A DNA stretch of 64,000 bases from Sphingomonadaceae bacterium (GTDB taxonomy: Bacteria > Pseudomonadota > Alphaproteobacteria > Sphingomonadales > Sphingomonadaceae), in contig RFZB01000001.1 of assembly GCA_009920915.1 (NCBI GenBank), forward strand, positions 2,025-66,024. Direction: 5' to 3'. The notes beneath the pieces were generated by a model that was not told the origin of the DNA, did not search any database, and saw only the letters and a list, made by a program, of their open reading frames with translations. This document shows, one piece after another, positions 7,260 through 63,388 of this stretch. Position numbers and translations under genes: made by a program. Within the stretch, counting starts at the first letter, position 1, and every line of letters starts with the position of its first letter.

Positions 7260-8465
7260 ATGAACCTAGGGAAAATAGACGCGCTGTTTCAGGAGCGCCG
7301 TACCGGGCACACCCTTCCTCAAGCGCTGTACACCAGTCAGGATGCCTTTGAGTTCGACGTAAAGGCAATTTACGGACAGAATTGGCTGATGGCGGGCATG
7401 GAGTGTGAGCTGCCAAAATCAGGCAGTTACCTGTCCATGATGATTGGCAACTGGCCCGTCCTGATTTTGCGAGACAAGCAGGGCCACATCCGCGCCTTTC
7501 ACAATAGCTGCCGTCACCGCGGGTCGATTTTGTGTCAGCCGGGCCATGGCACGGCCCCCAAGCTGGTGTGCCCCTATCACCGCTGGACTTATGATCTGGA
7601 CGGATCCCTTTTTGCGGCAGGCCGCATGGAAGAGGATTTTGATAAATCAGCACATGGGCTGAAGCCAGTTGCCGTTGAATGTTTTGGCGGAGCGATTTTC
7701 ATCTGTCTCGCCGATAATCCGCCGCCAATTGATGAGTTTCGTGAGAAATTCTCGGCCTATGCAGCGCCCGCCAATTTTGAAAACCTGAAGCTCGCCCATG
7801 TCGACAAGCTGGTGGAATATGCCAATTGGAAGCTGGTGATGGAAAATGCGCGGGAATGTTATCACTGCGCAACGGGCCATCCGGAATTGGCGAAAACTTT
7901 CCCTGTCGGCATGTCGAAGCATTTTGACGCACATGAAGACGCGCGTGCCGAAGCCTTTGGCAAGGCGATGGACGCCAATGGCTTTCCACATGAGCCGGTT
8001 GAGGGGCATTGGTGGCAAGTCGCGCGCTTTGCGCTGAACGAAGGCTGCACCACCATGTCAGAAGATGGCAAGCCTCTGGTGAAAAAGCCTCTGTTGACGG
8101 CGAATGGCGGAAATGTGGGGTCGCTTCGCTGGGCGATTGATCCGCATTTATTTGCGCATGCCACATCTGATTATGTGTTTATGTTCAGTTGCATGCCAGT
8201 CAGCCCCACCGAAACCCATGTCTATAGCAAATGGTATGTCCACAAAGATGCCGTTGAAGGCGTGGATTATGATTTGAAAGAACTGACGGATTTGTGGCTT
8301 GTGACCAATGGTCAGGATAAAGAACTGGCCGAAAACAATCATATTGGGGTCATGAGCCCAGGCTATACGCCCGGGCCCTATTCGACCGATGCTGAAATGC
8401 TCGCCCGGCGTTTCACCGACTGGTATTGTGACACAGCCCGTGCGTATATTGATGCCCATGGCTAA
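7260..8465 (+). CDS. Rieske non-heme iron oxygenase alpha subunit #1 (GbcA/Stc2-like quaternary-amine demethylase family)
   Basis: Rieske ligands CRHRG...CPYHRW and mononuclear Fe motif ENARECYHC...HPEL. The C-terminus WYVHKDAVEGVDYD...QD is typical of betaine demethylases. Confidence 0.9.
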   Translation: MNLGKIDALFQERRTGHTLPQALYTSQDAFEFDVKAIYGQNWLMAGMECELPKSGSYLSMMIGNWPVLILRDKQGHIRAFHNSCRHRGSILCQPGHGTAPKLVCPYHRWTYDLDGSLFAAGRMEEDFDKSAHGLKPVAVECFGGAIFICLADNPPPIDEFREKFSAYAAPANFENLKLAHVDKLVEYANWKLVMENARECYHCATGHPELAKTFPVGMSKHFDAHEDARAEAFGKAMDANGFPHEPVEGHWWQVARFALNEGCTTMSEDGKPLVKKPLLTANGGNVGSLRWAIDPHLFAHATSDYVFMFSCMPVSPTETHVYSKWYVHKDAVEGVDYDLKELTDLWLVTNGQDKELAENNHIGVMSPGYTPGPYSTDAEMLARRFTDWYCDTARAYIDAHG

Positions 8466-9717
8466 GAACAAACCCAGCGACTATCGCCCTGAAACACTTG
8501 CCGTAGCCTTTGGCTATGACCCGCAGGACGGCATGGGGGCCGCTAAGCCGCCCATCTTCATGACATCCACTTTCGTCTATCCTTCGGCGCAACATGCCAA
8601 GGATGTGCATGAAGCCTATTTTGACGGCACAGGCCCCCTGGTTGGGGAAACCAACCATATTTATTCGCGCCTTGGCCATCCTGGGCTCGATTTTCTTGAA
8701 ACGCGGCTGGCGGCAATTGATGGGGCAGAGGCCGCTGTTGCCTATTGCAGTGGCATGGCCGCGCATTCCAGCATCGCGCTGTCTTATGTTCGCAGTGGCG
8801 ACAGCGTTTTGCATGGCCGGCCAATTTATGGCGGCGTTGATGTATTGTATAACACCATCATGGCGCAATTTGGCGCGCACGCCCAATCCTATCTGGATGG
8901 CACGGATGAGGCCGGTGTTCGTGCTGCTGCCCAAGCGGCAATGGCCAAAGGGCCATTAAAGCTGATTATTGCTGAAACCCCTGCCAACCCAACGGCCGCG
9001 ATTGTTGATCTCGACTTGATGGTGAGAATTGCGGACGAAGTGGGCGAAAAACAGGGGCATCGTCCGCTGGTTGTTGTAGATAACACGCTGCTTGGGCCAT
9101 TTGCGCAGCGGCCCATTGAACATGGCGTTGATCTGTGTCTGACGTCGCTGACCAAACATTGTGGCGGGCATAGTGATCTTTTGGCGGGCGGGATTTCTGG
9201 CCGAAAAGAGTTGATTGAGCCATTGCGCCTCTTGCGCACGACATGGGGCAATCATCTTGATCCCTATACGTCTTGGCTGGTGCTGCGTTCGCTGGAATCA
9301 GTGGCTGTCCGCACCGAGCGGGCGATGAGCAACGCGCGTGCTGTGGCCACCTATTTACGGGATCATCCCAAAGTTGCGGGCGTGACCTTCCTTGGCTTTC
9401 TGCCCGAAGGGTCGCGGCAGCGCGCGGTTTATGATCGGCAGTGCAAGGCCGCTGGCTCCACCTTTTCCTTCCATCTTCATGGCGGCGAGGCAGAAGCCTT
9501 TCGCATGCTAGACAAATTGCAACTGATGAAAGTTGCTGTCAGCCTTGGTGGGTCTGAAACGCTGATTTGCCATTCGGCAAGCACAACGCATTACGCCGTG
9601 CCGCGTGAGCAGCGGCTGGCAGGAGGAATTACTGATGGCACGATGCGGCTATCAGTGGGGCTGGAACATGTCGACGATCTGATCGCGGATCTCGCACAGG
9701 CATTGGAAGCGGTGTAA
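8458..9717 (+). CDS. PLP-dependent gamma-lyase (methionine gamma-lyase / cystathionine gamma-synthase family)
   Basis: Motifs KPPIFMTSTF, YSRLGHP, SGMAA, ETPANPT, VVDNT, PLP lysine SLTKHCGGHSD, AVSLGG and MRLSVGLE. The start is taken as ATG 8458, overlapping the Rieske stop. Confidence 0.9.
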   Translation: MAKNKPSDYRPETLAVAFGYDPQDGMGAAKPPIFMTSTFVYPSAQHAKDVHEAYFDGTGPLVGETNHIYSRLGHPGLDFLETRLAAIDGAEAAVAYCSGMAAHSSIALSYVRSGDSVLHGRPIYGGVDVLYNTIMAQFGAHAQSYLDGTDEAGVRAAAQAAMAKGPLKLIIAETPANPTAAIVDLDLMVRIADEVGEKQGHRPLVVVDNTLLGPFAQRPIEHGVDLCLTSLTKHCGGHSDLLAGGISGRKELIEPLRLLRTTWGNHLDPYTSWLVLRSLESVAVRTERAMSNARAVATYLRDHPKVAGVTFLGFLPEGSRQRAVYDRQCKAAGSTFSFHLHGGEAEAFRMLDKLQLMKVAVSLGGSETLICHSASTTHYAVPREQRLAGGITDGTMRLSVGLEHVDDLIADLAQALEAV

Positions 9718-11180
9718 TGGAACTGAATTTCAACGGAACCGATTTGTGCGCGGTCAACGGCACGCGCAGTGCGCCTGAGGCCCGGTATGACCTTGTTGTC
9801 GTGGGGGCAGGACCCAGCGGGATTGCGGCTGCCATTGATGGGGCTGCGGCTGGCCAATCTGTGCTGCTGGTTGATGAAAACCCAGTATCGGGCTGGTTGA
9901 TGGGCAATGATACGCCGCTCTATTTCGGCGGGCGCATGACCTCTGCAACCCAGAATAGTGACCGCATGTTGGAAGCCATTTTCATGAGCATGCCGGACCT
10001 GGAATCTGCCATGGAGGCTGGCGTTGAGCTGCTGCTCGGCACGACTGCTTGGGGCGTCTATCGCAATGGGCCGGGCGTAAACAGCCTGCCGGACCAAGTT
10101 GTTGGCTTGGCAGACCGTGATCGGTCTTGGATGGTCGGCTTTAAAAAGATTGTGATTGCAACGGGCGCGCGCGATTTAGCTATTGCGTTTCCGGGCTGGA
10201 ACCAGCCGGGTGTCATGGGCGCGGCGGCGCTGACCATGTTGTTGACGCGCTATGATGCCTTTGCTGGACGGCGCTTGCTGATTTTGGGCAGTCATGATTT
10301 GGCGCTGGAAACCGCGCTTCTCGCCTTGGACAAGGGGCTGGAAGTCGCTGGCTTGGTGGAAGTGCGCGATGCACCCCAAGGCTCTGCCGCGCTGGTTGAA
10401 AAGCTGGCAGCAGCAGGCGTTGCCATTCATTGCGGGCAGAGCATCAAGGCGACCAAAGGCGGGCTGGATGGCGTTGAAGGTGCAACGCTGACCGACGGGA
10501 CGGACTTTGTCTGCGACACGATCTGCGTTGCAATTGGCTTGGTGCCGTCAATCGAACTGGTCGATGCCATGCATGGGGCACGTACGCTTAATGCCCAGCG
10601 CGGCGGCTATATCCCTGCGGGCGAGCCGAATGTCATCACTGTGGGGGATTGCGCTGGGTTGGCGGACACGGGCTTTGACCATGTGGCCTATCGGATGGAC
10701 TGGGTGCGCGCGGCGCTGAAGACCAATGCGCCAGACACCATCATCTGCCAATGCGAAGAGGTGACGCTTGCTGATTTGATTGGCGTGCAGCCGCCGCAGT
10801 ACCTGGATCGTCCTCCAGCCATTCAGGCACGGTCGCTTGATACGTTGCTGCAGGATGGCCCGGCCAACCCGGATCAAATCAAGCGGTTGACGCGCTCTGG
10901 CATGGGGGTGTGTCAGGGTCGGCGGTGCCGCGATCAGGTGGCCATGTTGCTCGCAATCGAGTCCGACAAGCCGTTCGGCACGATCCCGCTGGCGACGCAC
11001 CGCGCGCCGGTCCGTCCGCTGCCGCTCAAAATTCTGGCGGAATGGGATGAGCCTGCCGCCATGGATGCCGCCTGGGATGTTTGGTTTGGCATTCCAACAC
11101 AATGGGTGCCCGTGGAAGATATCGGCACACCACAAGAAGATGCGCATCGCGAGATGCTCTACACGGGGATGTACAAATGA
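9717..11180 (+). CDS. FAD/NAD(P)-dependent oxidoreductase with C-terminal BFD-like [2Fe-2S] domain (HcnB / OoxA / imino-acid dehydrogenase alpha-like)
   Basis: VVGAGPSGIAA, IATGARD...FPGWNQPGVMGA, ICQCEEVT and KRLTRSGMGVCQGRRC. TAATG coupling to the upstream gene. Confidence 0.85.
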   Translation: MELNFNGTDLCAVNGTRSAPEARYDLVVVGAGPSGIAAAIDGAAAGQSVLLVDENPVSGWLMGNDTPLYFGGRMTSATQNSDRMLEAIFMSMPDLESAMEAGVELLLGTTAWGVYRNGPGVNSLPDQVVGLADRDRSWMVGFKKIVIATGARDLAIAFPGWNQPGVMGAAALTMLLTRYDAFAGRRLLILGSHDLALETALLALDKGLEVAGLVEVRDAPQGSAALVEKLAAAGVAIHCGQSIKATKGGLDGVEGATLTDGTDFVCDTICVAIGLVPSIELVDAMHGARTLNAQRGGYIPAGEPNVITVGDCAGLADTGFDHVAYRMDWVRAALKTNAPDTIICQCEEVTLADLIGVQPPQYLDRPPAIQARSLDTLLQDGPANPDQIKRLTRSGMGVCQGRRCRDQVAMLLAIESDKPFGTIPLATHRAPVRPLPLKILAEWDEPAAMDAAWDVWFGIPTQWVPVEDIGTPQEDAHREMLYTGMYK

Positions 11181-12313
11181 GCGGCTCTGAAGTCGTCATC
11201 GTTGGCGGTGGCGTTACCGGCCTGAGTGCGGGGTGGTGGCTGGCACGGTCTGGCGTCAAGGTTACCGTGCTTGATAAATTCATTGTCGGCTGGGAGGCGT
11301 CAGGCCGCAATGGCGGCGGTGCATCGCACTATTCAAGCCCCTTGTTTGATGAAGAACAGCGTATGTGGCCGCAAATGGATGAGCTGCTGGGCTATCCAAC
11401 TGAGCATCAAAAGGGCCGCATCCTGATTGCGATGACGGAGCGCCAATGGGAGCAGTATCGCTTCATTGCAGAGCGCCATACCCGGCTGAACCATCCCGTT
11501 GAGCTGCTGGATGTGAAGCAGGTGCAGGAAGCTGTGCCCTTGGCGGGCGATAACTGCTTTGGCGGTGTCCATTATAAATTTGGCGGCCATGCCAATCCGC
11601 AGCGCACCGTGCAGGCCTATGCCTGGGCGTTGCAGGATTTGGGCGGCAAGATCATTCAGCATAGCCCCGTGACAGGTTTTGAAACGGCTGGCGGGAAAGT
11701 CACTGCGGTCAAGACGGCAAATGCCACCTATGGCTGCGATGCGGTTGTTGTCGCGGCGGGCCCGCAAATTCCGCAACTTATGGCGCAATTGGGCGTGGAT
11801 GTGCCTTTGGCGGCGGCGCGCGCGGAAATGATTATTACAGAGCCTGCGCCGATGATGCCGCTGGGCGGAGTTGACGGGCATAAAATTTATGGTCGTCAAA
11901 CCTTGCGTGGCAATTTGGCCTATGGCGGCGGTCCGCATGAATGGCTTGATGTCGATGCGACTGGCCCTGCCGCGCGTCCGTCCACGCCTTTGGCACGCAA
12001 TCTGGCCAAACGTTTGGCAGAATTGCTGCCCAAGGCGGCGCATCTCAATGTGATCCGCAGCTGGGCAGGCGTCATCGAAAACTCACCCGATGGCCGCCCG
12101 ATTATTGATCGGCTGACCAGCCCGGACAATGTTGTTGTCGCATCGATGTCGAGCGTAGGCTTTGGCCTATCGCCCGCTTCGGGCCATGCAATCCGTGATT
12201 TAGTGATTGATGGCAAATGCTCCTTTGCGGACATTGATATTCTAAAGCTGTCGCGCTTTGACGGGTTGGAAAAGGATTGGCGCGAAAAGCGCGGGTGGAT
12301 GCCCATCGCATGA
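11177..12313 (+). CDS. DAO-family FAD-dependent oxidoreductase (HcnC / OoxB-like amino/imino-acid dehydrogenase subunit)
   Basis: IVGGGVTGLS, ASGRNGGG, RSWAGVIENSPDGRPII and GFGLSPASG. ATGA overlap at 11177-11180. Confidence 0.87.
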   Translation: MSGSEVVIVGGGVTGLSAGWWLARSGVKVTVLDKFIVGWEASGRNGGGASHYSSPLFDEEQRMWPQMDELLGYPTEHQKGRILIAMTERQWEQYRFIAERHTRLNHPVELLDVKQVQEAVPLAGDNCFGGVHYKFGGHANPQRTVQAYAWALQDLGGKIIQHSPVTGFETAGGKVTAVKTANATYGCDAVVVAAGPQIPQLMAQLGVDVPLAAARAEMIITEPAPMMPLGGVDGHKIYGRQTLRGNLAYGGGPHEWLDVDATGPAARPSTPLARNLAKRLAELLPKAAHLNVIRSWAGVIENSPDGRPIIDRLTSPDNVVVASMSSVGFGLSPASGHAIRDLVIDGKCSFADIDILKLSRFDGLEKDWREKRGWMPIA

Positions 12314-13566
12314 GCCGATATTCCGCGTTCAGCCTGTTGCGCGGGGCCTTTAACGGTCAATCGCACTGGAAGCCTGCCTGGCGTCATCCCGACCCCAAGC
12401 CGCATTATGACATCATCATCATCGGTGGTGGCGGGCACGGGCTGGCAACGGCCTATTATCTGGCCAAGGTGCACGGGTTGCGCAATATCGCCGTGCTTGA
12501 AAAAGGCTGGATTGGCGGCGGCAATACCGGGCGGAATACAACGATTGTGCGGTCCAATTACCGTCAGGATGCGCTGCACAACTTCTTCGAATTCGGGTTG
12601 AAGCTGTGGCACGGCCTCAGCGATGATCTGAATTACAATGTGATGTTTAGCCCGCGCGGCGCGCTGACGCTGGGCCATAGCGATGCTGATATGGTGACGC
12701 TTGCGCAGCGTGGCGATGCGATGCGCTGTGACGGAATTGATGCCGAGTTGCTGACGCGCGATCAGGTGGCAAAGCTAGAGCCTTTGCTCGATATGTCACG
12801 CACGGCCCGCTTCCCGATTGAAGGCGGATTGATCCAGCGGCGGGGTGGTTCCGCGCGGCATGATGCTGTCGCCTGGGGCTATGCGCGTGGGGCGGACAGC
12901 TTGGGCGTGGACATCATCCAAAAATGCGAAGTGACGGGCTTTGTGCGGGATGGCGATGCCATTGTTGGCGTGGAAACAACGCGCGGGCGCATTGGGGCAG
13001 GGCGCGTGGGCATTTGCGTGGCCGGGCATAGTGGCCATGTGGCCGGTTTGGCGGGACTGCGCTTGCCCATTGAATCGCAGACCTTGCAGGCCATGGTGAC
13101 GGAAGGCGTCAAGCCGATGATCAACACTGTGATCATGACGCAGGCGCTCCATTGCTATATCAGCCAATCAGATAAGGGCGGCATCGTCTTTGGTGGCGAT
13201 CCTGATAATTGGCCCAGCTACGCGCAGCGCGGCAATCCGATGATTATGGAAAATGCGGTGGCCCAAGGCTTGGCCCTTGTGCCTGCTCTGTCGCGCCTTC
13301 GTATGCTGCGCACATGGAGCGGGGTGACGGATATGAGCTTTGATGGCTCTCCCATCATTGGTGAAACGCCGCTGCCGAACCTCTATCTCAACGGCGGCTG
13401 GTGCTATGGCGGCTTTAAGGCGACGCCTGCTTCGGGCTGGACCTATGCCCACACGCTGGCGACCGGCAAGCCGCACCCGCTGAACGCGCCCTTTTCGCTC
13501 GATCGGTTTGAACGTGGGGCGACAATTGATGAAACAGGGAGCGGCCCGATGCCGAGTAGCCGCTAA
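12310..13566 (+). CDS. soxB: heterotetrameric sarcosine oxidase family beta subunit (copy 1)
   Basis: [35 protein letters not shown] (the covalent-FMN His context) and GGFKATP. ATGA start at 12310. Confidence 0.9.
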   Translation: MSRYSAFSLLRGAFNGQSHWKPAWRHPDPKPHYDIIIIGGGGHGLATAYYLAKVHGLRNIAVLEKGWIGGGNTGRNTTIVRSNYRQDALHNFFEFGLKLWHGLSDDLNYNVMFSPRGALTLGHSDADMVTLAQRGDAMRCDGIDAELLTRDQVAKLEPLLDMSRTARFPIEGGLIQRRGGSARHDAVAWGYARGADSLGVDIIQKCEVTGFVRDGDAIVGVETTRGRIGAGRVGICVAGHSGHVAGLAGLRLPIESQTLQAMVTEGVKPMINTVIMTQALHCYISQSDKGGIVFGGDPDNWPSYAQRGNPMIMENAVAQGLALVPALSRLRMLRTWSGVTDMSFDGSPIIGETPLPNLYLNGGWCYGGFKATPASGWTYAHTLATGKPHPLNAPFSLDRFERGATIDETGSGPMPSSR

Positions 13567-13829
13567 TGATGCAGATTGCTTGCCCGCATTGCGGGTCCCG
13601 CGCACAGCAAGAATTTATGTATGAACGCACGGTCGATTCCGTGGTTCCTCTTGATGCGCCAACCGATAAGGCCATGGCGGCGCTGTTCACCCGCACCAAT
13701 CCGCGCGGGCCGGACGATGAAATTTGGCGGCATACCTATGGCTGCCGGGCGTGGATGGTGGTGACTCGCCATCGCGTGACGCACGAGATTACCGCCGTTC
13801 GAGCTGTTGGGCCGGAGGTGCTGCCATGA
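13566..13829 (+). CDS. soxD: sarcosine oxidase family delta subunit (copy 1)
   Basis: Zn ligands CPHC...WRHTYGC, 87 aa, located between soxB and soxA. Confidence 0.9.
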   Translation: MMQIACPHCGSRAQQEFMYERTVDSVVPLDAPTDKAMAALFTRTNPRGPDDEIWRHTYGCRAWMVVTRHRVTHEITAVRAVGPEVLP

Positions 13830-16609: not shown

Positions 16610-17093
16610 GGTTGCTATCTCGCGCCTGCCAGAGGCCCCGCTGCATGTGGTGGAAATCTGGAGCAACCCGCAGGATGTGGCACAGCGGTTTGCCGCGGCC
16701 ATGGGCTTTGCGTTGCCCGCTATGGGCCTATCAGCCAGCAATGATCGCCTGGGTCTGATGCGGTTTGAGCCAAGTGTTTGGCTGGCTGAGGGGGATGTTT
16801 CGGGCCTTGCCGACATCTTGGCTGAAAATGGGGCGCTCACCGAAATTGGCGGGGGCGTGGTGCGCATTCGCCTGTCTGGCGCTGGTTGGCGTGCGCTTCT
16901 TATGGAGGCGGGCGTCTTTGATGCAGAAGACCCCAATTTTGGGCCGGGCTGCACCGCGGCAACCCTGATTGACCACGTCAATGTGCGGTTGCATGTCGTG
17001 GCAGAGGATGTGTGCATTGCCTATGTGCCTGCCAGCTATAGCCGCGCGTTGCTCCATTTTTGGGACGAAGCTGGCAAAACGCTGACGGCCTAA
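16602..17093 (+). CDS. soxG: sarcosine oxidase family gamma subunit (copy 1, divergent)
   Basis: Position after soxA, size about 163 aa, with features such as MRFEPSVWL and FGPGCTAATLIDHVNV. GTG start at 16602 after GGGAGA. Confidence 0.75.
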   Translation: MTEVAISRLPEAPLHVVEIWSNPQDVAQRFAAAMGFALPAMGLSASNDRLGLMRFEPSVWLAEGDVSGLADILAENGALTEIGGGVVRIRLSGAGWRALLMEAGVFDAEDPNFGPGCTAATLIDHVNVRLHVVAEDVCIAYVPASYSRALLHFWDEAGKTLTA

Positions 17094-28896: not shown

Positions 28897-28897
28897 A

Positions 28898-34231: not shown

Positions 34232-34323
34232 AACCACTGCCTAACCGATCCAAATTGCATCGTGATTGGCCCGCTATGTCAGCCGACGCTATGGTTCGAC
34301 AACTCTGGGCGCGCACCCAAGCC

Positions 34324-41292: not shown

Positions 41293-41297
41293 GCCGA

Positions 41298-51875: not shown

Positions 51876-51892
51876 CGGTAAATTAAATTCAC
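51876..51892. promoter_or_regulatory. LysR box GTAAATTAAATTCAC (T-N11-A) upstream of the GcvA-type regulator
   Basis: CGGTAAATTAAATT (14 bp) is identical at 51876-51889 and 62394-62407. Confidence 0.6.
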
Positions 51893-56136: not shown

Positions 56137-57427
56137 AGCCAACTGCCCGCTTCTGATCTTCAATGATGTATTTTTCAGCCCGCCAATAATGCCAAGCCGC
56201 CCAGAAGCCGCTGGGTGCAAGGATTAGCTGCGCCAGACGCAGTGAGTCTGCATCTGCGCCCGCCGGACCAGCAAAATAATCACTCAACGCCCCGACAAGG
56301 CCGGGCGCCACGATCAGATTTAGGACATTAGCAATCAGCAAAGAGATGGCAATTGCCATGGCCCGCATATTGGGGGCTGCCAAATTCTGGCACAGCGCCA
56401 TTGCAGGGCCAATATAGAAATAGATGGTTGGGATGAACAGCCACCACATAATCTTCGCAACGGCCAAGTCATGCGTCCAATAGGCATAGAAGGAAGGCAG
56501 CGTTCCCAATGCGGTGACCACAGCCAACAGCCGGGCGATGCGGCGCGGGTCAGCATAGCTGGGCCGCGCAACAACCCAAGCGGTCACCAGCGATGCCCCA
56601 ATGCCGCCGATGAGGTAAATTTCCCCCAGCAAACGGCCTGCTTCCCCTTCATTCATGCCATAGGTCCGCTGCAGGAAGAGGGGGGTGAACCACATCAAGC
56701 CCCAGCCCCAAAAGGCAGACAAGCCCGCGCCCATCATGCCATGAACGGCGGATTTCTGAGACCAGAGAAACTTGAGTGTTTCCATTACAGTAGCCGCTTT
56801 GTCTCCCGAAACAGCGTCGAGCCGGCCACGTTTGGGTTCTTTAATGGTCACGAGAATGATGACAGCTAGGATGATGCCAGGAATGCCCAGAACCAAAAAG
56901 GCCGAGCGCCAGCCATGATTGGTCGATACAAGGCCCGCAATGTCTGAGCCCAGCCATGCCCCAATAGGCGCGCCTAAGGCGAAAATTGTCATTGCCATTG
57001 AACGACGATCAGCTGGAAAATAATCGGCAATAATGGAGTTGCAGGCCGGGGTGCCGCCGGCTTCGCCCACGCCCACGCCAATGCGCGCCAGTAACAGGTC
57101 AAAATAGCCCCGTGTGTACCCCGTCAGCGCTGTCATGGCGGACCATGCAGCAACCGAGGCCGCCAGCAGCTTTTTCCGGTTGGTCCGGTCTGTCAGCCAG
57201 GACAGGGGTATGCCCATGATGACGTAAAAGAGCGCCAATGGAATGCCGAGTGACGCGGCGCCAGTATCGCTTAAATTGAGTTCTTCGCTAATTGGTCCCA
57301 ACAATGTGGAGAGGACATAACGATCTGCAATGCTAATCGTATAGACAAGCATCATGATGAAAAGGACATACCAGCGCTGGCCCAGCGTTGATACGGTGTC
57401 GGCGTCTACAGGATTTTGAGTTGCCAT
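56129..57427 (-). CDS. MFS transporter, spinster-like
   Basis: ADRYVLSTLLGPI, DRTNRKKLLA, RIGVGVGEAGGTP, IADYFPADRR and HGWRSAF. Confidence 0.9.
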   Translation of the reverse strand: MATQNPVDADTVSTLGQRWYVLFIMMLVYTISIADRYVLSTLLGPISEELNLSDTGAASLGIPLALFYVIMGIPLSWLTDRTNRKKLLAASVAAWSAMTALTGYTRGYFDLLLARIGVGVGEAGGTPACNSIIADYFPADRRSMAMTIFALGAPIGAWLGSDIAGLVSTNHGWRSAFLVLGIPGIILAVIILVTIKEPKRGRLDAVSGDKAATVMETLKFLWSQKSAVHGMMGAGLSAFWGWGLMWFTPLFLQRTYGMNEGEAGRLLGEIYLIGGIGASLVTAWVVARPSYADPRRIARLLAVVTALGTLPSFYAYWTHDLAVAKIMWWLFIPTIYFYIGPAMALCQNLAAPNMRAMAIAISLLIANVLNLIVAPGLVGALSDYFAGPAGADADSLRLAQLILAPSGFWAAWHYWRAEKYIIEDQKRAVGYV

Positions 57428-57441: not shown

Positions 57442-59466
57442 TCATCGTGCCAATTCCGGCCCTAAAACGTCGCGTAATGGGTCAAGATATGGCGAGAAAT
57501 TTTCCCACTGATCGACGCCGCTGCGGAACAGTGGCTGGCGCACTTGCTCAGAACTGGCGGTGCGGACAGCGCGTTCAGTCTGGTGGAAGTTGATGCAGGC
57601 TTCTTCAAAGTCGAGGCCACAGAAATCAAGCACGCGGCGCACCTGCGTTTCCAAATCATCAACAACGTCTTCATACTGAACTTTGAGGACCTTGCCGGGC
57701 AGAACCTTGTCCCAATGATCCATCAGCGCGACATAGTCTTTGTAATAATGGCCAATTTCCTCAAGGCCGTAGGTGAATTCCTGCCCCTCGGCGAACAATT
57801 GTTTAAACCCAGAAAAGCAGCAGCCCATTGCACTGCGACGCGCATCAATGATTTTTGCATTGGGCAGGATCATGTGGATCAGGCCAATATGCCGAAAATT
57901 ATTGGGCATTTTATCAATGAAAAAGGGCTTGTTGGTTTTGCGGTGAATGCGCGTGTCGCGCAAATAGGCTTCGCCAAAGGCCCGAAGGTCGTCGCGCGAC
58001 AATTCGTTGAGATTGGCGGGATAACGCGCTTCTTCTCCAACGCGACGTCGGCCATCCAGCTTGTGCGCAAGGGCCAGAATATTTGGCAACTCCATCGTGC
58101 CTTCCACTTGGCTATGCGAAGCCAGAATTTGCTCTAGCAACGTAGAGCCTGCGCGTGGCAAGCCGAGAATGAAAATGGGGTCCTGCGCTGCAAACCCTGC
58201 GCCGGCCGTATCTGCAAAGAGTTGCGGTGTGCAATGTTCAATCTGCAGACCAATTTCCTTGGAAATCTTCCGCCAATCATACCCAACTTCATCACGTTTT
58301 AGGCGGTTGCCGCGCTCATAATAGTCAAAGGATGTGGCATAATCCCCGCTATCTTCCAGCGCTTTGCCAATGGCGAAGCACAGATGATAGCGATCGACGA
58401 GCTGGGTGGTCGCCTGATCTTCAATGTCGCGCATCTTCGACACGAGGCCCGCGTCAAAGCGATAGGTTTTCAGGTTGGCAAGGCTCCAATACGCGTCGCC
58501 AAAATCGGGGCGGACACGATAGGCTTGGCTATAGGCCTCAATGGCTTCTTGCTGGCGCCCCGTCGTTTTCAGCGCATGGCCCAATGTCAGGTGTACGCTG
58601 GGATTGCCAGGTTGGGCTGCGGCAATAGTCTTATAAATAGACAGCGCTTCATCAAAATTCCCAACGCCCAAGCTCTGATTGGCATAGAGCATTTCAACTT
58701 GCGGATTTTCTGGGTCGTTTTCACGCAGGATTTTAGCTTGTTCGAGGGCCTGCGCAAATTTCTGCCGACTTTGCAGGACTGTTACATAATCAAAGCGGGC
58801 GCCGGGGTTTTCGGGCTCAAGCTCGACTGCGGATTCCAAAAGAAACTCGGCCTCGTCCAGCACGTTAAACTGTGTGCCAATCTGCGCCAGAAGCCGCATG
58901 GCTTCGACATGGTGCCCATGCGTCTGCAAAAAGGCGCGGCACAGCTTTTCCGCCCGCAAGAAACGGCCTTCTTCAATAAGGCTGGCAACTGTCAACAACT
59001 CAGGGGGAAGGGCGCTCCAATATTCGCTCTGAATCTCGGCAAATTCGGCTGCTGCGGTGCGGCCTGCCGCGCGATTGAGGCGCGCAAGCATGTTCCAGCT
59101 GGCGAGCAAGGCGCGATTATGGGCCACTGCATTTTGATAGGCCATCAAAGCGGCAGTGCTATCGCCCATGTCTCTGAGGCAATGGCCCTGTTCCTGATGG
59201 GCACGGCCATTTGCGGGGTTGATGGAGATTAGGCGCTTAACTGTTGCAAGCGCCTCAGCAAATTTACGCTGCGTGCGTTGAGAAACGGCAAGAATGTACA
59301 GCGCATCGCGATTGTCAGGCTGGTCGGCCAAGAGCTGCTGGCAGAGCGTTTCTGACTCTTTGGCTTGCCCCTTTTGCAGCATCTCGCGCGCTTTGGCTGC
59401 GATGGCATCGCTATCAAGGGGGGTAACCGTAACGTTCATGGCCTGCAAATCCTTATCTTGCGGCAA
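57442..59466 (-). CDS. TPR-repeat-containing sulfotransferase-family protein
   Basis: N-terminal helical TPR-like repeats, then PIFILGLPRAGSTLLEQIL (5'-PSB loop), FIDKMPNNF, DARRSAMGCCFS and TASSEQVRQP. Start at 59466 or 59439. Confidence 0.9.
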   Translation of the reverse strand: MPQDKDLQAMNVTVTPLDSDAIAAKAREMLQKGQAKESETLCQQLLADQPDNRDALYILAVSQRTQRKFAEALATVKRLISINPANGRAHQEQGHCLRDMGDSTAALMAYQNAVAHNRALLASWNMLARLNRAAGRTAAAEFAEIQSEYWSALPPELLTVASLIEEGRFLRAEKLCRAFLQTHGHHVEAMRLLAQIGTQFNVLDEAEFLLESAVELEPENPGARFDYVTVLQSRQKFAQALEQAKILRENDPENPQVEMLYANQSLGVGNFDEALSIYKTIAAAQPGNPSVHLTLGHALKTTGRQQEAIEAYSQAYRVRPDFGDAYWSLANLKTYRFDAGLVSKMRDIEDQATTQLVDRYHLCFAIGKALEDSGDYATSFDYYERGNRLKRDEVGYDWRKISKEIGLQIEHCTPQLFADTAGAGFAAQDPIFILGLPRAGSTLLEQILASHSQVEGTMELPNILALAHKLDGRRRVGEEARYPANLNELSRDDLRAFGEAYLRDTRIHRKTNKPFFIDKMPNNFRHIGLIHMILPNAKIIDARRSAMGCCFSGFKQLFAEGQEFTYGLEEIGHYYKDYVALMDHWDKVLPGKVLKVQYEDVVDDLETQVRRVLDFCGLDFEEACINFHQTERAVRTASSEQVRQPLFRSGVDQWENFSPYLDPLRDVLGPELAR

Positions 59467-59579: not shown

Positions 59580-59590
59580 CTATCAGATGC

Positions 59591-62260
59591 TTACATCTTG
59601 TAAGACAAGCGCAGGCCGATCGTCCTTGGGCGTGACGTGGTCACGCGCAATTCACCATCATTGCCGCTCTTGAAGAGCTCCGGCTTGGCGTTGGTCATGT
59701 TTTCGCCAAACAGCTCAATCGTCCAATTGTCACGGCCAGCGCCAATGGCGGCATTGACCATGGTATAGGCCTTTTGGTCTTCCGACGCACGAACCGGAAC
59801 GATCACGTCACCCGGCTTCACAGTTACGCCGTTATAAACAACGGGAACCTGTGCGACATAACCCAAATGGGCGTTGAAGGTCGGGAACTTGATGTCAACA
59901 TTGTCAAACACCGTTGAGATGCTCTTGCCGACATAGTTCACGCCAGCCTGCACATAAGGACGCAGGCCCGAGGTGGTTTCCCACTCATAACGACCGCGAA
60001 TATTGCCCTGGAATTTGGGGCTCAGCGCAAGCGGGCTGCCAACGGGGCGAAGAACTGAGGCGTTCTTGAGCCATTTTGTCAGCTTCGAGTCATTATAAGA
60101 GAATGCGGAATTGATCGTGAACTCGGGCGTTGCACGCCAAGTCACATCACCTTCAAGACCGCGGATCCGGGCGTTTGTGAAGTTCGTCGTGAACGTCTGG
60201 TTAGAGATGTTCTGATCGAAAATCGTCTGCTGAATGTTCGTCCAATCAATTTGATAGGCCGCAAAATTCAGCTGCATCCGACGATTAAGCAGCGGGAATT
60301 TACCGCCGATTTCATAGTTCTTCACTTCATCCGGAACATAATATTTCAGGCCGTCGCACGCCGCAGTTGTGGCGTTACACGGCTTGCGGTTGAACCCGCC
60401 CGGACGGAAGCCTTCCGAATAGGTTGCATAGACCAGCCCGCCATTGTCGAGCTTGTAGGTCACGTTCCCCTTGAAGATGAAGCCATTATATTTGGCAGGC
60501 GACAGGCCCTTCAACGTCTGGCGAAGATCAGCCGAGATGTTGTAGGTCCGCGGCGGATTTGCACCTGCCGTATAGGTTCCCGTTGCCGGGTTATACACAG
60601 CGCGTGAACCACCAAAGCTACCATTTGACGAACCAACCATTGAGGCCTTTTCGTCATAATAACGTGCACCACCGGCGACCGTCAGCTTTTCCGGAATAAG
60701 GTCGTAAGATACTTCGCCATAGGCGGCCATCTGACGGTCTTTGCGTACGACATCGTTGAAGAAGCCAACTTTGACCGGCTTTACGCCGCCATCAAGCGGT
60801 TGGACCGAAGGATTGGCCGAACGCGGATAGATGAAGCCAGCGGCTGTCTGGAGATACGACCAATCGGTGTTATCTTCGAGACGCAGATCGTCATAGAACA
60901 AGCCAGCCGTTGTCCGGAACCGGTTTTCTGCTGGCGACGTAACGCGAAACTCTTGCGTGAAACGCTTGGTTTTGTTGCGTACCGAATAGCTCTTATTGGG
61001 AGCATAGCAGGTCTTGCCGATGTTTCCGTTGTAAGCGGCCGTGTAATAAACACCGCGATCGCACTCATAATATGGCAGATAGAGGCCGATATTGGAGTAA
61101 GATGCATAATCCGCCACCTGACGGGCATCATGCTTCAAGAACGACCCTGTATAGATCATGTCCAAGGTGCCGAGACGGCCATTCACCGTCCACGTCGTTT
61201 CCGAGAACTTATCTTTCAACTTGTTGGCGCCAAACTGTGTGACCTTCATCGGGCCAACAGCGGGCTCATAATCAAACACGCCATCCGTATCGAGCTGCTG
61301 GCGCATGTGCATCAGGTCAATCGACCAATCATCATTCACTTGATAGGTCGCAGCGATGCGGCCGCCAGAATAGGTGGCGTCGTTGTAGTTATTCTCAACA
61401 AACGCATCGTTGTTGATCGTCTGACGGGTCGGTGCAACATAGGTTGAGCCGGTGCAGTTCACGACACCCGTACAAGACTGGATCGCGCGCAGAACGAGCA
61501 GCGGGTTACCTGTTGGCAACTTGCCGGCAACGCCCACATTGCCATTGAACGGCATCTGATAGGTCGCAGCGACGTTATCAATGTACCCGCCCTGACGGTC
61601 CGAATAGGCGACCAAGCGGATCGCGAACTTGTCCTTGATGACAGGAATGTTCACAAAGCCATTAACGCCTGTGCTTTCTTCGCCACCCTTGGTGAACGAG
61701 TGGCTCGTGTTCACGCCAACGCCAAAATCGCTGAGATTCGGCTTGTTGGTGATGTAACGAATGGCGCCGCCCATTGCGCTGGCGCCGAACAAGGTGCCCT
61801 GCGGCCCCGCCAGCACTTCGACGCGCTGAAGGTCTACCGCGTACACATCAAGGTTACGGCCAACGAGCGATGCCGGCGCGTCATTCACATAAAGCGCGAC
61901 GCTGGGGCTGACCCCGGCGGTCCCGTTAATCTGAATGCCTGCAGTGTCCGTTGAAAGGCCACGAATATAGATTGAGGATGTGCCAGGGCCACGCGATGCC
62001 GCGCGAACATTAGGCAGATATTCGACAAGATCGTCAAAGTTCGCGACGTTCAAGCTCGAGAGGCTGTCGCCACTCAAAGCTTGGATTGCCAGCGGCACCT
62101 TGTTGATGGCTTCTTCACGACGCGTAGCCGTCACAACGATGTCGGGAATCGCACCATCGTCGCTTGTTGCGTTGCTATCCTGCGCAAAGGCTGGGCCGCT
62201 GCCCGCGCCAAATGCGGCAAGAACGATTGTCGCTGTTGATAATTTTAGTAGTGCTTTCAA
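59591..62260 (-). CDS. TonB-dependent outer-membrane receptor
   Basis: TTG start after AAGGGAGA, signal peptide ending AFAQ, TonB box DIVVTATRR, plug motifs IYIRG and VEVLAGPQGTLFGA, and a beta-barrel C-terminus PRTIGLRLSYKM. Confidence 0.95.
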   Translation of the reverse strand: MKALLKLSTATIVLAAFGAGSGPAFAQDSNATSDDGAIPDIVVTATRREEAINKVPLAIQALSGDSLSSLNVANFDDLVEYLPNVRAASRGPGTSSIYIRGLSTDTAGIQINGTAGVSPSVALYVNDAPASLVGRNLDVYAVDLQRVEVLAGPQGTLFGASAMGGAIRYITNKPNLSDFGVGVNTSHSFTKGGEESTGVNGFVNIPVIKDKFAIRLVAYSDRQGGYIDNVAATYQMPFNGNVGVAGKLPTGNPLLVLRAIQSCTGVVNCTGSTYVAPTRQTINNDAFVENNYNDATYSGGRIAATYQVNDDWSIDLMHMRQQLDTDGVFDYEPAVGPMKVTQFGANKLKDKFSETTWTVNGRLGTLDMIYTGSFLKHDARQVADYASYSNIGLYLPYYECDRGVYYTAAYNGNIGKTCYAPNKSYSVRNKTKRFTQEFRVTSPAENRFRTTAGLFYDDLRLEDNTDWSYLQTAAGFIYPRSANPSVQPLDGGVKPVKVGFFNDVVRKDRQMAAYGEVSYDLIPEKLTVAGGARYYDEKASMVGSSNGSFGGSRAVYNPATGTYTAGANPPRTYNISADLRQTLKGLSPAKYNGFIFKGNVTYKLDNGGLVYATYSEGFRPGGFNRKPCNATTAACDGLKYYVPDEVKNYEIGGKFPLLNRRMQLNFAAYQIDWTNIQQTIFDQNISNQTFTTNFTNARIRGLEGDVTWRATPEFTINSAFSYNDSKLTKWLKNASVLRPVGSPLALSPKFQGNIRGRYEWETTSGLRPYVQAGVNYVGKSISTVFDNVDIKFPTFNAHLGYVAQVPVVYNGVTVKPGDVIVPVRASEDQKAYTMVNAAIGAGRDNWTIELFGENMTNAKPELFKSGNDGELRVTTSRPRTIGLRLSYKM

Positions 62261-62370
62261 AGCCTCTCTCCCCTTTTAATCAGACCGCCTATCTACACGA
62301 TACACGGCAATCCCACACGCGATAGTTTATTTTTATCCAGAGTCAGACGTGAAGCCCGATCCGAGGGCCA

Positions 62371-62410: not shown

Positions 62411-62530
62411 TCGGCAATCACGATATCTTCAGCCACCAATTAGATGACCTAATGCGGGGTTCTGAGCGTTGGAAATCCGGCAATGAGATAGGTAGTCGAA
62501 TAAAAAAAGAATTTTAATCGGGGGAGCCTC

Positions 62531-63388
62531 ATGGCGACAGATGCAGATTTTGTCCTGCTGATTTCAAGCGATGACCGCAAAGGTATTGTTGCGGCAGTCG
62601 CAAATTCGATTGTGAGCCAGGACTGCAACATCGTTGAAAGCGCGCAATTTGGCGATGCGTCAACGGGTCGCTTTTTCATGCGCGTGGCGTTTAGCGTCCC
62701 TGCCGGCATGACTTTGGATATGTTTTCAGAGGTTTTTCTGCCGGTCGCGACAGCTTTCCGGCTTGATTGGCGCGTTCATGATCTGAGCCACAAGCTGCGC
62801 GCTATGATCATGGTCAGCCAAGGCGGGCATTGCCTGAACGACTTGCTGTATCGGACATCAACCAACAGGTTGCGGATTGACGTTACCAGCATCGTTTCAA
62901 ACCATCTGACATGGCAACGCCGGGCCGACCATGAAGGGGTGCCTTTCCATCATCTTCCAATTACGCCCGAGAACAAGCTTGAGCAGGAAGCCAAGCTATT
63001 GGCGATGGTGGAAGAGCAGCAGGTCGATCTGATTATTTTGGCGCGCTATATGCAGGTTCTATCAGACCAGCTTTGCCAGAAGTTAGATGGTCGCGTGATT
63101 AACATTCACCACAGCTTTTTGCCTGGGTTTAAAGGGGCTAAACCCTATCACCGGGCGCATGAGCGCGGCGTAAAAATGGTCGGCGCAACAGCGCATTATG
63201 TAACGGCAGATTTGGACGAGGGGCCAATCATCACCCAAGACGTGTCCGTTGTTGACCACGCAGACACCGTGGATGATTTGATTGCACAGGGCCAAGATAC
63301 CGAAAGCCGGGTTTTGGCGCGGGCTGTGAAGCTGCACAGCGAGCATCGGGTCCTGCTGAATGGCAACCGAACCGTTATCTTTAAATAG
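62531..63388 (+). CDS. purU: formyltetrahydrofolate deformylase
   Basis: N-terminal ACT domain DRKGIVAAV...FFMRV, VSQGGHCLNDLL, LARYMQVLS, INIHHSFLPGFKGAKPY and GATAHYVTADLDEGPII. Confidence 0.96.
   Translation: MATDADFVLLISSDDRKGIVAAVANSIVSQDCNIVESAQFGDASTGRFFMRVAFSVPAGMTLDMFSEVFLPVATAFRLDWRVHDLSHKLRAMIMVSQGGHCLNDLLYRTSTNRLRIDVTSIVSNHLTWQRRADHEGVPFHHLPITPENKLEQEAKLLAMVEEQQVDLIILARYMQVLSDQLCQKLDGRVINIHHSFLPGFKGAKPYHRAHERGVKMVGATAHYVTADLDEGPIITQDVSVVDHADTVDDLIAQGQDTESRVLARAVKLHSEHRVLLNGNRTVIFK

Follow-up and report, generated by a model that had tools for sequence, protein, structure and literature searches.

A conserved multi-module gene island predicted to act on N-methylated compounds in freshwater Sphingomonadaceae

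We analyze a 56-kb gene island (positions 7260-63388) in a 64,000-nucleotide stretch of contig RFZB01000001.1 (assembly GCA_009920915.1, Sphingomonadaceae bacterium), referred to here as the window. Judged by its genes, the island is a conserved, multi-module set for N-methylated compounds in freshwater Sphingomonadaceae, and we predict with high confidence that it encodes three Rieske-initiated, three-step N-demethylation cascades with disposal of the resulting one-carbon units. The cascades lie in three modules (A, B and C) that differ in a conserved pocket residue and in accessory genes; Module A also embeds a pyridoxal phosphate (PLP) enzyme of the Cys/Met family in a conserved operon, and a fourth module (D) carries a separate cassette. 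Taken whole, the explanation that we favor, a supercluster in which each of the modules A to D has a proposed substrate or chemistry, strikes us as evenly balanced between right and wrong.

Three predicted cascades with distinct pocket signatures

Open-reading frames (ORFs) of the window were scanned with NCBIfam and Pfam profiles, using curated model scores as cut-offs. The inventory given by the initial annotation (three Rieske oxygenases, three GcvT-domain dehydrogenases, two soxBDAG sets, betA with a BCCT transporter, purU and several additional enzymes) was confirmed, at or close to the positions given there, by the ORF calls and both profile collections (Table 1). Module A (7260-17093, plus strand) comprises the Rieske oxygenase A1, the PLP enzyme A2, the flavoproteins A3 and A4, soxB, soxD and soxA-like and soxG-like genes; since the ORF coordinates of neighboring genes from A1 to soxG overlap by 1-32 nt, we regard these genes as one operon. 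The minus-strand string running from 34237 to 17090 begins with Module B (an FAD+GcvT dehydrogenase, Rieske B, a cupin, soxB, soxD, soxA and soxG) and continues with a BCCT transporter, betA, a PF12831 flavoprotein, an MFS transporter, the regulator LysR2 and an alpha/beta-hydrolase. A middle group places the gene of an E1-like thiamine pyrophosphate (TPP) enzyme, on the minus strand, opposite an Lrp regulator, an APC permease and the omega-aminotransferase AptA on the plus strand. Module C (47402-40210, minus strand) contains two FAD+GcvT dehydrogenases, Rieske C and an MDR/Zn-ADH-family oxidoreductase, with SDR, HIBADH-family and aldehyde dehydrogenase (ALDH) genes opposite, and the Module D region, with LysR3, spans a TonB-dependent receptor (TBDR), a TPR/sulfotransferase protein, an MFS transporter, an ALDH, an enolase-superfamily enzyme and a GMC oxidoreductase (62260-51889, minus strand). 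Both sox sets follow the gene order B-D-A-G, with soxB above its cut-off and soxG below it in each.

All three Rieske proteins contain the cluster motif CRHRG...CPYH and the motif E-C-Y-H-C-x3-H with the bridging Glu and the His pair of the mononuclear iron, and match the GbcA model over its full length (E between 1e-87 and 1e-127), none of them reaching the equivalog cut-off (Table 1). Their closest solved structures are Stc2 (3vca) and 3n0q (239-364 bits). Identity among paralogues amounts to 32-41% for the Rieske proteins, 52% for SoxB, 44% for SoxA and 34-41% for the FAD+GcvT dehydrogenases, the pair formed by dehydrogenase C1 and its Module B counterpart standing at 41%.

The structural study of CntA, from which we take both the numbering and the meaning of position 203, splits group-V Rieske oxygenases by the residue at CntA Tyr203 (PMC7948474). 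An aromatic residue there holds the trimethylammonium group by pi-cation contact and marks the C-N-cleaving or chain-hydroxylating clade of CntA, choline monooxygenase and OxyBAC, whereas the group Vb demethylases GbcA, BmoA and Stc2 have Asn and bind the substrate alpha-carboxylate to the iron (PMC7948474). Where CntA reads DNYMECYHC, with Tyr203, Rieske B shares ENNRECYHC, with Asn203, with Stc2, 3n0q and Paracoccus GbcA; A1 reads ENARECYHC, with Ala203 (46 orthologues have Ala and 26 Gly), and Rieske C reads ENFFECYHC, with Phe203 in 120 of 120 orthologues among the matches listed. These three conserved and differing signatures are good evidence, at the level of sequence, for three binding modes. 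Because the paralogues are divergent, each with its own residue at 203, because their accessory genes differ and because the modules occur independently elsewhere, it is very probable that the extra modules act on compounds other than glycine betaine, in agreement with the earlier proposal that they act on different N-methylated compounds.

In each cascade the group-V Rieske oxygenase would take off the first methyl group as formaldehyde and two flavoprotein N-demethylases the next. The demethylases of Modules B and C and the Sox step of Module A would deliver methylene-tetrahydrofolate, and PurU would dispose of one-carbon units, assisted in most relatives by an adjacent NAD-formate dehydrogenase and in some by a glutathione-formaldehyde dehydrogenase. 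The neighborhood of Module A in related contigs and genomes, labeled here L0xx and L1xx, contains such functions: fdsGBA/fdhD, encoding an NAD-formate dehydrogenase, lies upstream of LysR1 in 44 loci and is the commonest extra neighbor, S-(hydroxymethyl)glutathione dehydrogenase is found near the module in 13 loci, and purU stands next to LysR1 or Module A in L007, L035, L080, L082 and L083. These one-carbon disposal neighbors fit oxidative demethylation.

Conservation and enzymes of Module A

Protein searches returned the best 120 matches, mostly near-identical sphingomonad sequences, and phylogenetic breadth was obtained from a plasmid collection and one metagenome scan seeded with the PLP enzyme of Novosphingobium capsulatum. 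A five-gene core, LysR-Rieske-PLP-A3-A4, is conserved in four lineages, and its PLP gene is translationally coupled. LysR1 and the Rieske gene are adjacent in each of the four core lineages and in 73 related loci, and across the 80 loci compared the block from LysR1 to soxG is present wherever the flank is long enough. Conservation within the operon is uneven across 80 species, with median identities of 96% for A4, 87% for A2, 72% for A1 and 66% for the soxG-like protein.

The N. capsulatum plasmid NZ_CP140001.1 encodes LysR, Rieske, PLP enzyme (72% identity), A3 and A4, followed by a CocE/NonD hydrolase, a second LysR and a TBDR; it has no sox genes, and its hydrolase is not homologous to the window esterase, our name for the alpha/beta-hydrolase encoded at 17090-18397. 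The core recurs in three metagenomic lineages, whose PLP enzymes are 97%, 85% and 58% identical to that of N. capsulatum. L107 combines the core with a CocE/NonD hydrolase and a PQQ dehydrogenase, with a 45%-identical esterase homologue 5 kb away. In L108, an esterase homologue (47% identity), a TPR/sulfotransferase protein, a TBDR and a LysR gene precede the core, the TPR/sulfotransferase gene between esterase homologue and TBDR (L108:2264-3697) encoding a product 42% identical to that of window 57442-59466. L110-L114 have an Opp/Dpp-type ABC transporter upstream of the core and an extra DAO flavoprotein downstream.

Three genes outside the core are repeatedly joined to it. Exported esterase homologues lie near the core in three lineages and in three different arrangements; in about 45 loci esterase and LysR2 come next after the LysR1-to-soxG block. 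LysR2 itself comes after soxG of set A in about 40 loci, and in some genomes it stands directly beside BCCT or Module B. The E1 gene adjoins LysR1 in three Novosphingobium metagenome-assembled genomes (MAGs; L075, L076 and L081) and lies between A4 and soxB in L080, making four species. TBDR genes adjoin the core in L080, L089, L108 and N. capsulatum, and the stretch immediately before LysR1 in L080 holds purU and three Module D genes (MFS, TPR and TBDR).

The best structural matches of A2 in the PDB are the uncharacterized 5ijg and 7swh, methionine gamma-lyases (MGLs) reaching only about 250 bits. A2 conserves the PLP lysine and the carboxylate-binding arginine and has YGG (IYGG), as in cystathionine gamma-synthases and gamma-lyases, where the MGL active-site cysteine stands (Cys115/116; residue 115 of Citrobacter MGL). 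Scoring 340 bits against the MGL model TIGR01328 (cut-off 550) and lacking this cysteine, it is not a canonical MGL; the matches to A2 on roseobacter and Salmonella plasmids (36-38% identity) are true MGLs and uninformative here. The initial annotation had proposed a gamma-lyase in a route through homoserine; the integral place of a PLP enzyme in a conserved core fits this in part.

A3 and A4 have the subunit sizes and domains of the two-subunit amine dehydrogenases OoxAB, HcnBC, PDH1 and D-hydroxyproline dehydrogenase, but the similarity of A3 to PDH1-type enzymes is remote (49-57 bits) and equal to that with rubredoxin and putidaredoxin reductases, so A3 may instead, or also, feed electrons to the Rieske oxygenase. 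Its PDB matches (the N-terminal domain of SoxA alpha, rubredoxin reductase and the PDH1 alpha subunit, 1y56_A) agree both with the alpha subunit of an amine dehydrogenase and with a ferredoxin reductase, and the Pyr_redox_2 and BFD-like 2Fe-2S domains of A3 could carry electrons to the Rieske center. A reductase that is shared and encoded elsewhere in the genome is common in sphingomonads, and the Rieske reductase of this island is either of that kind or replaced by A3.

The window esterase has a signal-peptide-like N-terminus, judged by eye, and a catalytic triad (Ser211 in GYSQGG, Asp294 and His325) that is invariant in 34 homologues. Its AlphaFold2 model (mean predicted local distance difference test, pLDDT, 80) retrieves PETases, cutinases, a Streptomyces lipase and a feruloyl esterase as top Foldseek matches (E about 1e-14), and we take the product to be an exported carboxylesterase of the cutinase/lipase fold. 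It may act as a lipase on betaine lipids. The earlier suggestion that it deacylates a lipid fits its export and its recurrence near the core, while nothing identifies betaine lipids as the substrate. The E1-like protein matches Escherichia coli E1 with 112 bits, and only its TPP and pyrimidine-binding domains are recognized; together with its score against the AceE model (Table 1), this does not uphold the label MdeB-like given to it before.

What Module A may degrade

The substrate of Module A is most likely an alpha-amino-acid betaine, the demethylated product of which would be converted to a 2-oxo acid by gamma- (or beta-) elimination on the PLP enzyme and then oxidized by the divergent TPP E1. 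Cys/Met-family enzymes need an alpha-amino acid with a beta- or gamma-leaving group and yield a 2-oxo acid, and cystathionine gamma-synthases eliminate O-acyl groups from homoserine. The presence of the PLP enzyme in the core and the recurrence of E1 and of the exported esterase fit a homoserine-type skeleton released from an ester precursor. The most probable such substrate would be N,N,N-trimethylhomoserine, either free or as the O-glyceryl ether that would be left once the esterase had deacylated the ether lipid diacylglyceryl-trimethylhomoserine (DGTS). If the ether is the substrate, its cleavage to glycerol, 2-oxobutyrate and NH3 would fall to the PLP enzyme; given that cystathionine gamma-synthases eliminate O-acyl groups, an O-glyceryl-homoserine lyase is chemically reasonable and would make a detour through Module D unnecessary. 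This reading draws on the PLP enzyme within the core, on the small residue at 203 and on the recurrence of E1, the exported esterase and the TBDR, all of it circumstantial evidence. We hold the homoserine/DGTS assignment tentatively, as a possibility well short of probable, and it is unlikely that Module A is in every part the first pathway for trimethylhomoserine or the DGTS head group, from external deacylation through import, triple N-demethylation and PLP-dependent splitting to the conversion of 2-oxobutyrate into propionyl-CoA. The broader claim of the initial annotation, that the island degrades betaine-lipid head groups, fits Module A only; nothing singles out betaine lipids, and Module D is independent.

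Several observations weigh against this assignment. The esterase is missing in L026, L060, L061 and L077, and in the window it is coupled to LysR2 and the choline-side gene string and not to Module A. The island has no linked genes for the catabolism of glycerol or fatty acids, and no homologue of the Module A core has an experimentally assigned function. A tblastn search of the whole 64-kb window with Paracoccus GbcB, for a reductase of the GbcB/BmoB/CntB FNR type, gave no match better than E=0.8, and there is no ferredoxin or FNR-domain protein among the annotated window genes. The A2 subfamily also occurs alone on Rhizobium plasmids, annotated as mdeA; E1 is only remotely AceE-like, and in river metatranscriptomes its depth is about zero although A1 and A2 are covered, a weak point given that these are contig depths. 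A1 and Rieske B are equally similar to Paracoccus GbcA (44% and 43% identity). Finally, the Rieske and A3/A4 genes of Paracoccus and Ancylobacter are clustered with glycine-betaine-type ABC transporters and no PLP enzyme.

This last arrangement bears on the alternative that we find hardest to set aside, in which the island is a set of ordinary operons, unconnected with lipids, that serve widespread free quaternary amines, and in which Module D, the esterase and the TBDR are unrelated neighbors. Choline and glycine betaine would then fall to Module B, while Module A would take another free alpha-betaine, for example proline betaine or a comparable osmolyte from plants or algae, and Module C carnitine, gamma-butyrobetaine or beta-alanine betaine, and the modules would be clustered only because sphingomonads gather catabolic genes. 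Every enzyme type in the island is known from betaine catabolism, Paracoccus and Ancylobacter have A3/A4 and GbcA-like genes in clusters with betaine ABC transporters, the Module D cassette stands alone in Ensifer and Caballeronia, some Module A loci lack the esterase and the order of genes between modules varies among genomes. Such an arrangement nevertheless leaves unexplained why a translationally coupled Cys/Met PLP lyase should be kept at 83-96% identity, why E1 should repeatedly join the core and why esterase homologues should lie near it in three lineages and three arrangements, and free betaines of osmolyte type are not so obvious a resource in the rivers and lakes that these bacteria inhabit. 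We consider it a serious possibility, if still short of probable.

Orthologues of A3 and A4 (40% and 60% identity) follow gbcA-gbcB on plasmid 1 of Paracoccus denitrificans and are also present on an Ancylobacter plasmid. Since these clusters have betaine ABC transporters and lack the PLP enzyme, Module A could simply be a second route from glycine betaine to glycine, with A3/A4 as a dimethylglycine dehydrogenase followed by SoxBDAG. Under this alternative the PLP enzyme and E1 would form a methionine/homocysteine side branch, similar to MdeA/MdeB, that disposes of the methionine formed by methyl transfer to homocysteine. The mde operon of Pseudomonas putida encodes a methionine gamma-lyase and an E1 homologue, with the Lrp-type regulator MdeR beside them. 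The likeness of A1 to Paracoccus GbcA and of A4 to its downstream neighbor, a homocysteine S-methyltransferase near Module A in 8 loci, the annotation of rhizobial A2 relatives as methionine gamma-lyases and the Lrp gene beside E1, which recalls the general layout of mde, all agree with such a branch. We judge it improbable, however, as A2 departs from MGLs in its active site and score, A1 has Ala or Gly at 203 and not the Asn of all characterized glycine and proline betaine demethylases, the Rieske route consumes no homocysteine and the N. capsulatum variant keeps Rieske, PLP enzyme, A3 and A4 without sox genes. Genetic evidence for Paracoccus gbcAB is available (bioRxiv 10.1101/2023.12.12.567942), and since the mutant has only a modest glycine betaine phenotype (bioRxiv 10.1101/2023.12.12.567942), the true substrate of that cluster may differ. 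Its neighborhood on plasmid 1 of strain PD1222 (L101, 387650-413170) comprises gbcAB, A3/A4 and a GlxA regulator, with MmgE/PrpD, acyl-CoA ligase, acyl-CoA dehydrogenase and C-N hydrolase genes nearby.

Modules B, C and D

Module B, with BCCT, BetA, a Rieske protein with Asn203, a dimethylglycine dehydrogenase (DMGDH)-like enzyme and SoxBDAG, would carry out the ordinary conversion of choline through glycine betaine to glycine. The initial annotation described the operon at 34231-17090 as already complete for this conversion; betA, Rieske B, the DMGDH-like enzyme and soxBDAG are indeed there, but betB is absent from the choline gene string and the window has no Rieske reductase.

The combination of Phe203, two DMGDH-like enzymes, an APC permease, AptA and an ALDH of amino-aldehyde type suggests that Module C may serve an omega-betaine or an amino-alcohol precursor of one. 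Its substrate would be a betaine lacking an alpha-carboxylate, such as beta-alanine betaine, gamma-butyrobetaine or a related omega-betaine, which the HIBADH-family and SDR enzymes and the ALDH may produce from an amino-alcohol, and the APC permease and AptA would handle the resulting omega-amino acid. The omega-transaminase that the initial annotation assigned to beta-alanine skeletons scores well above the AptA cut-off (Table 1), and the gene context suggests for it a role with the proposed omega-betaine of Module C. Rieske C resembles the enzymes of group Va (CntAB, choline monooxygenase, OxyBAC) in having Phe at the pi-cation position of Tyr203, as in OxyBAC (PMC7948474), but it aligns with CntA over the N-terminal half only (157 bits), is nearer to Stc2 and 3n0q and has no CntB. 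As two DMGDH-like demethylases follow, we favor demethylation over release of trimethylamine; an aromatic residue at 203 being the signature of the C-N-cleaving clade, the enzyme might still release an amine by C-N cleavage, which would count against a third demethylation cascade.

The island is syntenic on a 142-kb contig of a second species (Chakrabartia sp., JBJTNW010000007.1; L090 and L010). The MDR gene after Rieske C is conserved in L090-L092, as is the HIBADH-family gene opposite Module C, and in L092 Module C and the APC permease abut a sox set, with no Rieske B, E1, Lrp or AptA there. The modules are thus linked repeatedly, in varying order.

The link of Module D to the rest of the island is the weakest. 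Its chemistry would consist of the oxidation of an alcohol to an acid followed by an elimination, in a separate cassette. The enolase-superfamily enzyme best matches PDB entry 4e5t (623 bits), followed by 4e4u, 3t4w, 3rcy and 4j3z, all unnamed MR/MLE proteins, and with 257 bits against a cut-off of 311 it does not bear out its earlier designation as DgoD-like, belonging instead to the subgroup of unnamed structures led by 4e5t. The GMC-enolase pair, together with ALDH and MFS genes, forms a self-contained LysR-regulated cassette in Ensifer and in Caballeronia/Burkholderia (enolase identity 64-67%; 55% identity between the Module D and Ensifer ALDHs). The pair also occurs in Leisingera, and the cassettes in these genomes are not accompanied by Module A. 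Beside the core in its three other lineages, GMC and enolase are absent. The earlier scheme in which GMC, ALDH and enolase oxidize and eliminate a glyceryl ether is not sustained, the cassette being self-contained and widespread without Module A and gamma-elimination by the PLP enzyme being more economical.

It is only on the Leisingera thetidis plasmid pBMJM1_1 (L102/L105, 189-204 kb) that GMC and enolase genes stand back to back with those of a Rieske protein with Tyr203, a 691-aa flavoprotein and an ABC transporter, and the same plasmid encodes a cystathionine gamma-lyase and a TPP enzyme within 6 kb. This set is possibly an analogous pathway in a marine roseobacter; the plasmid is crowded with catabolic genes, for which reason proximity on it is weak evidence. 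The model of the initial annotation, in which all extra modules cooperate on betaine lipids, is chemically plausible and draws on the synteny of modules A to D in two species, on the MFS, TPR, TBDR and purU genes adjoining Module A in L080 and on the Leisingera set with its N-demethylase-like flavoprotein, but we regard it as most improbable, with GMC and enolase missing from three core lineages and common without the core, Module C separated from the neighbors of Module A in L092, the Leisingera plasmid so densely packed and the PLP enzyme able to cleave the ether more simply.

Host, habitat and integrity of the record

The host is a freshwater member of the Sphingomonadaceae (Chakrabartia/Sphingorhabdus), since its relatives are Sphingomonadales of lakes, rivers and glacier streams. 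Identical proteins are found in MAGs GCA_009928105.1 and GCA_009923275.1 and in several metagenome assemblies, and A2 relatives (83-96% identity) occur in 80 GTDB species, almost all of them Sphingomonadales from lakes, rivers and glacier-fed streams, with Sphingorhabdus lacus, S. contaminans, S. wooponensis, S. profundilacus and Chakrabartia godavariana as cultured carriers. A marine origin is ruled out by these freshwater relatives and by the riverine source of the RNA runs, and the habitat is therefore not the algae-associated marine setting implied before.

Two genes are interrupted in the window. A clean deletion of 125 bp at about 26372/26373 splits soxA of set B, with a frameshift at codon 752 of 953, and a second clean deletion, of 225 bp at about 5321, splits a 576-aa Amidohydro_3 gene (amidohydrolase, 4610-6114, minus strand) into two ORFs by comparison with the conspecific contigs L001-L003; neither is flanked by microhomology. 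The soxA gene is intact (953 aa) in the otherwise 100% identical public contigs L093-L095, river RNA contigs retain the 125-bp segment, and loose ends at 5321 in three river RNA runs correspond to the undeleted amidohydrolase form. As public and river RNA contigs carry the undeleted forms, both deletions are features of this record and not of the species, and a species-wide pseudogenization of soxA is ruled out. Both are multiples of 25 bp and may be artefacts of the record. Between 42 and 64 kb of the window, conspecific contigs were found as 2.5-kb pieces only. An extra T after 54707, in the overlap of the ALDH and enolase genes, is a minor population variant in river RNA contigs, and some 65 bp at the junction of betA and BCCT (window 23854-23918), present in the window and in L093, are missing from MAG contig L094.

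Transcription in rivers

Sequence words of Module A occur in more than 20 riverine metatranscriptomes. Depths were taken from contigs of four river runs placed on the island, contig depth being a poor measure of expression. Across the four runs, A1 and A2 have depths of 2-8, the esterase and LysR2 of 0-5, the APC permease and AptA of 0.2-7, Module D genes of 0-6 and Modules B and C of 0-3, with values near zero for MFS transporter 1, the PF12831 flavoprotein, betA and BCCT. The TBDR stands out with a depth of 9-46, far above the 0-8 of all other island genes. These depths show transcription and no more; they speak, if only mildly, against a single operon 17 kb long and against close co-expression of E1 and A2.

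Features of the island and its surroundings

Positions and profile evidence for the features are collected in Table 1. Outside the island, the segment 1-2692 (minus strand) encodes a type III polyketide synthase (DpgA-like, a weak match), a methyltransferase and an FAD monooxygenase-like protein, a small biosynthetic cluster, and an M17 leucyl aminopeptidase gene lies at 2928-4487. An Rfam scan of the window found neither a riboswitch nor any other RNA family.

Table 1. Genes of the island, with positions in the window and supporting profile matches (scores in bits)
Feature	Position	Strand	Evidence
LysR1	6201..7175	-	LysR by Pfam; divergent from Module A
A1, group V Rieske oxygenase	7260..8465	+	GbcA model 423, E=1e-127, cut-off 670
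A2, Cys/Met-family PLP enzyme, PRK07049 subfamily, proposed gamma-lyase	8452..9717	+	PRK07049 (cystathionine gamma-synthase family protein) 508, cut-off 504
A3, FAD/NAD(P) oxidoreductase, 487 aa	9717..11180	+	Pyr_redox_2, SoxA A3 domain, BFD-like 2Fe-2S (Pfam)
A4, DAO-family flavoprotein, 378 aa, A3 partner	11177..12313	+	Pfam DAO
soxB, set A	12310..13566	+	TIGR01373 667, cut-off 529
soxD, set A	13566..13829	+	87-aa ORF, CPHCG motif; Pfam SoxD in conspecific contigs
soxA-like alpha subunit, set A	13826..16609	+	TIGR01372 997, under cut-off 1164
soxG-like, set A	16578..17093	+	TIGR01375 41.5, under cut-off; position after soxA
Exported alpha/beta-hydrolase, cutinase/PETase/lipase-like carboxylesterase (predicted)	17090..18397	-	Pfam PETase, PAF-AH_p_II
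LysR2, overlaps esterase start	18369..19367	-	NCBIfam LysR
MFS transporter 1	19442..20761	-	Weak MFS matches; Pfam MFS_1 in relatives
FAD-dependent oxidoreductase PF12831, overlaps betA end	20783..22165	-	Pfam 294
betA, choline dehydrogenase	22144..23811	-	TIGR01810 835, cut-off 732
BCCT transporter	23808..25373	-	TIGR00842 422, cut-off 408
soxG, set B	25392..25919	-	TIGR01375 96.8, under cut-off
soxA, set B, split	25891..28627	-	Two ORFs matching soxA model positions 3-~760 and 832-996
soxD, set B	28624..28932	-	CPYCDE motif ORF; Pfam SoxD
soxB, set B	28898..30151	-	TIGR01373 715, cut-off 529
Small cupin, ChrR-like	30148..30471	-	Pfam Cupin_7
Rieske B, GbcA/Stc2 type	30471..31718	-	GbcA model 411, E=1e-123, cut-off 670
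FAD+GcvT dehydrogenase, DMGDH-like	31724..34237	-	DAO, FAO_M, GCV_T, GCV_T_C domains
Divergent homodimeric-type TPP E1-like enzyme	34381..36720	-	aceE model TIGR00759 154, cut-off 860
Lrp/AsnC regulator	36845..37330	+	NCBIfam Lrp
APC permease, GABA-permease-like	37358..38740	+	TIGR01773 484, under cut-off 678
Omega-aminotransferase AptA	38840..40156	+	NF052567 720, cut-off 500
MDR/Zn-ADH-family oxidoreductase coupled to Rieske C	40210..41328	-	Pfam ADH_N, ADH_zinc_N
Rieske C	41298..42539	-	GbcA model 290, E=1e-87, cut-off 670
FAD+GcvT dehydrogenase C2	42539..44983	-	NCBIfam, Pfam
FAD+GcvT dehydrogenase C1	44988..47402	-	NCBIfam, Pfam
SDR oxidoreductase	47567..48331	+	NCBIfam
HIBADH-family dehydrogenase	48436..49389	+	TIGR01692 170, under cut-off
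ALDH, amino-aldehyde type (PuuC/BADH-like)	49408..50913	+	PuuC 564, BADH 489, both under cut-off
LysR3, GcvA-like	50890..51834	-	NCBIfam
GMC oxidoreductase, betA paralogue (41% identity)	51889..53517	-	betA model 464, under cut-off 732
Enolase-superfamily enzyme	53514..54716	-	DgoD model PRK14017 257, under cut-off 311
ALDH of Module D cassette	54688..56220	-	NCBIfam
MFS transporter 2	56129..57427	-	NCBIfam
TPR + sulfotransferase-domain protein	57442..59466	-	Pfam Sulfotransfer_3, TPR
TonB-dependent receptor (TBDR)	59591..62260	-	NCBIfam
purU, formyl-tetrahydrofolate deformylase	62531..63388	+	TIGR00655 323, cut-off 286

Relation to known systems and implications

The GbcAB/BmoAB clusters of Paracoccus denitrificans (Pden_4896-4909), Pseudomonas and Chromohalobacter likewise combine a group-V Rieske oxygenase with flavoprotein demethylases, a heterotetrameric sarcosine oxidase and purU. 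They share with the island the need to dispose of formaldehyde and formate and, in Paracoccus, A3/A4 orthologues after gbcAB. The island differs from them in having three divergent cascades, no GbcB/BmoB reductase and regulators of the LysR and Lrp families in place of GbdR/GlxA, in the PLP lyase within one cascade, in the linked esterase, TBDR and E1-like genes, and in its freshwater sphingomonad host. The stachydrine and hydroxyproline-betaine systems (Stc2 of Sinorhizobium meliloti; HpbB1C1/HpbA of Paracoccus) resemble it in the stepwise demethylation, predicted in the case of the island, of an alpha-betaine to an amino acid. The island, however, lacks an epimerase, a StcD-like OYE-flavoprotein and any downstream enzyme of proline type; Asn203 is kept in Rieske B alone, and Module A ends in a Cys/Met PLP enzyme, which would have no role with proline. 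With mdeAB of P. putida the island shares the pairing of a Cys/Met PLP enzyme with a homodimeric E1-type enzyme and an Lrp regulator, and the expected intermediate 2-oxobutyrate; in contrast, A2 is not a canonical MGL, E1 is very divergent from AceE-type E1 and the two genes lie 25 kb apart.

In many algae, mosses and fungi, and in bacteria starved of phosphorus, betaine lipids take the place of phospholipids. DGTS, the ether lipid of green algae, mosses, fungi and phosphorus-starved bacteria, is the largest reservoir of trimethylhomoserine, which is also the main osmolyte of Trichodesmium. To our knowledge, bacterial recycling of the carbon and nitrogen of betaine lipids or trimethylhomoserine is not known. 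Our literature search found no bacterial catabolic pathway for the DGTS head group or homoserine betaine, no paper linking a Rieske oxygenase, a gamma-lyase and a sarcosine oxidase, and no aerobic stepwise demethylation pathway for gamma-butyrobetaine or beta-alanine betaine, and the fate of trimethylhomoserine has been stated to be unknown (bioRxiv 10.1101/2021.03.10.434842).

The island provides concrete candidate genes for the recycling of trimethylhomoserine, present in several cultured strains and transcribed in rivers. It also flags conserved gene sets, namely the A3/A4 pair beside gbcAB, the PRK07049 subfamily of PLP enzymes and the GMC-enolase-ALDH cassette. One freshwater lineage with three predicted Rieske-initiated cascades and three pocket signatures would widen the scope of the group-V Rieske oxygenases.

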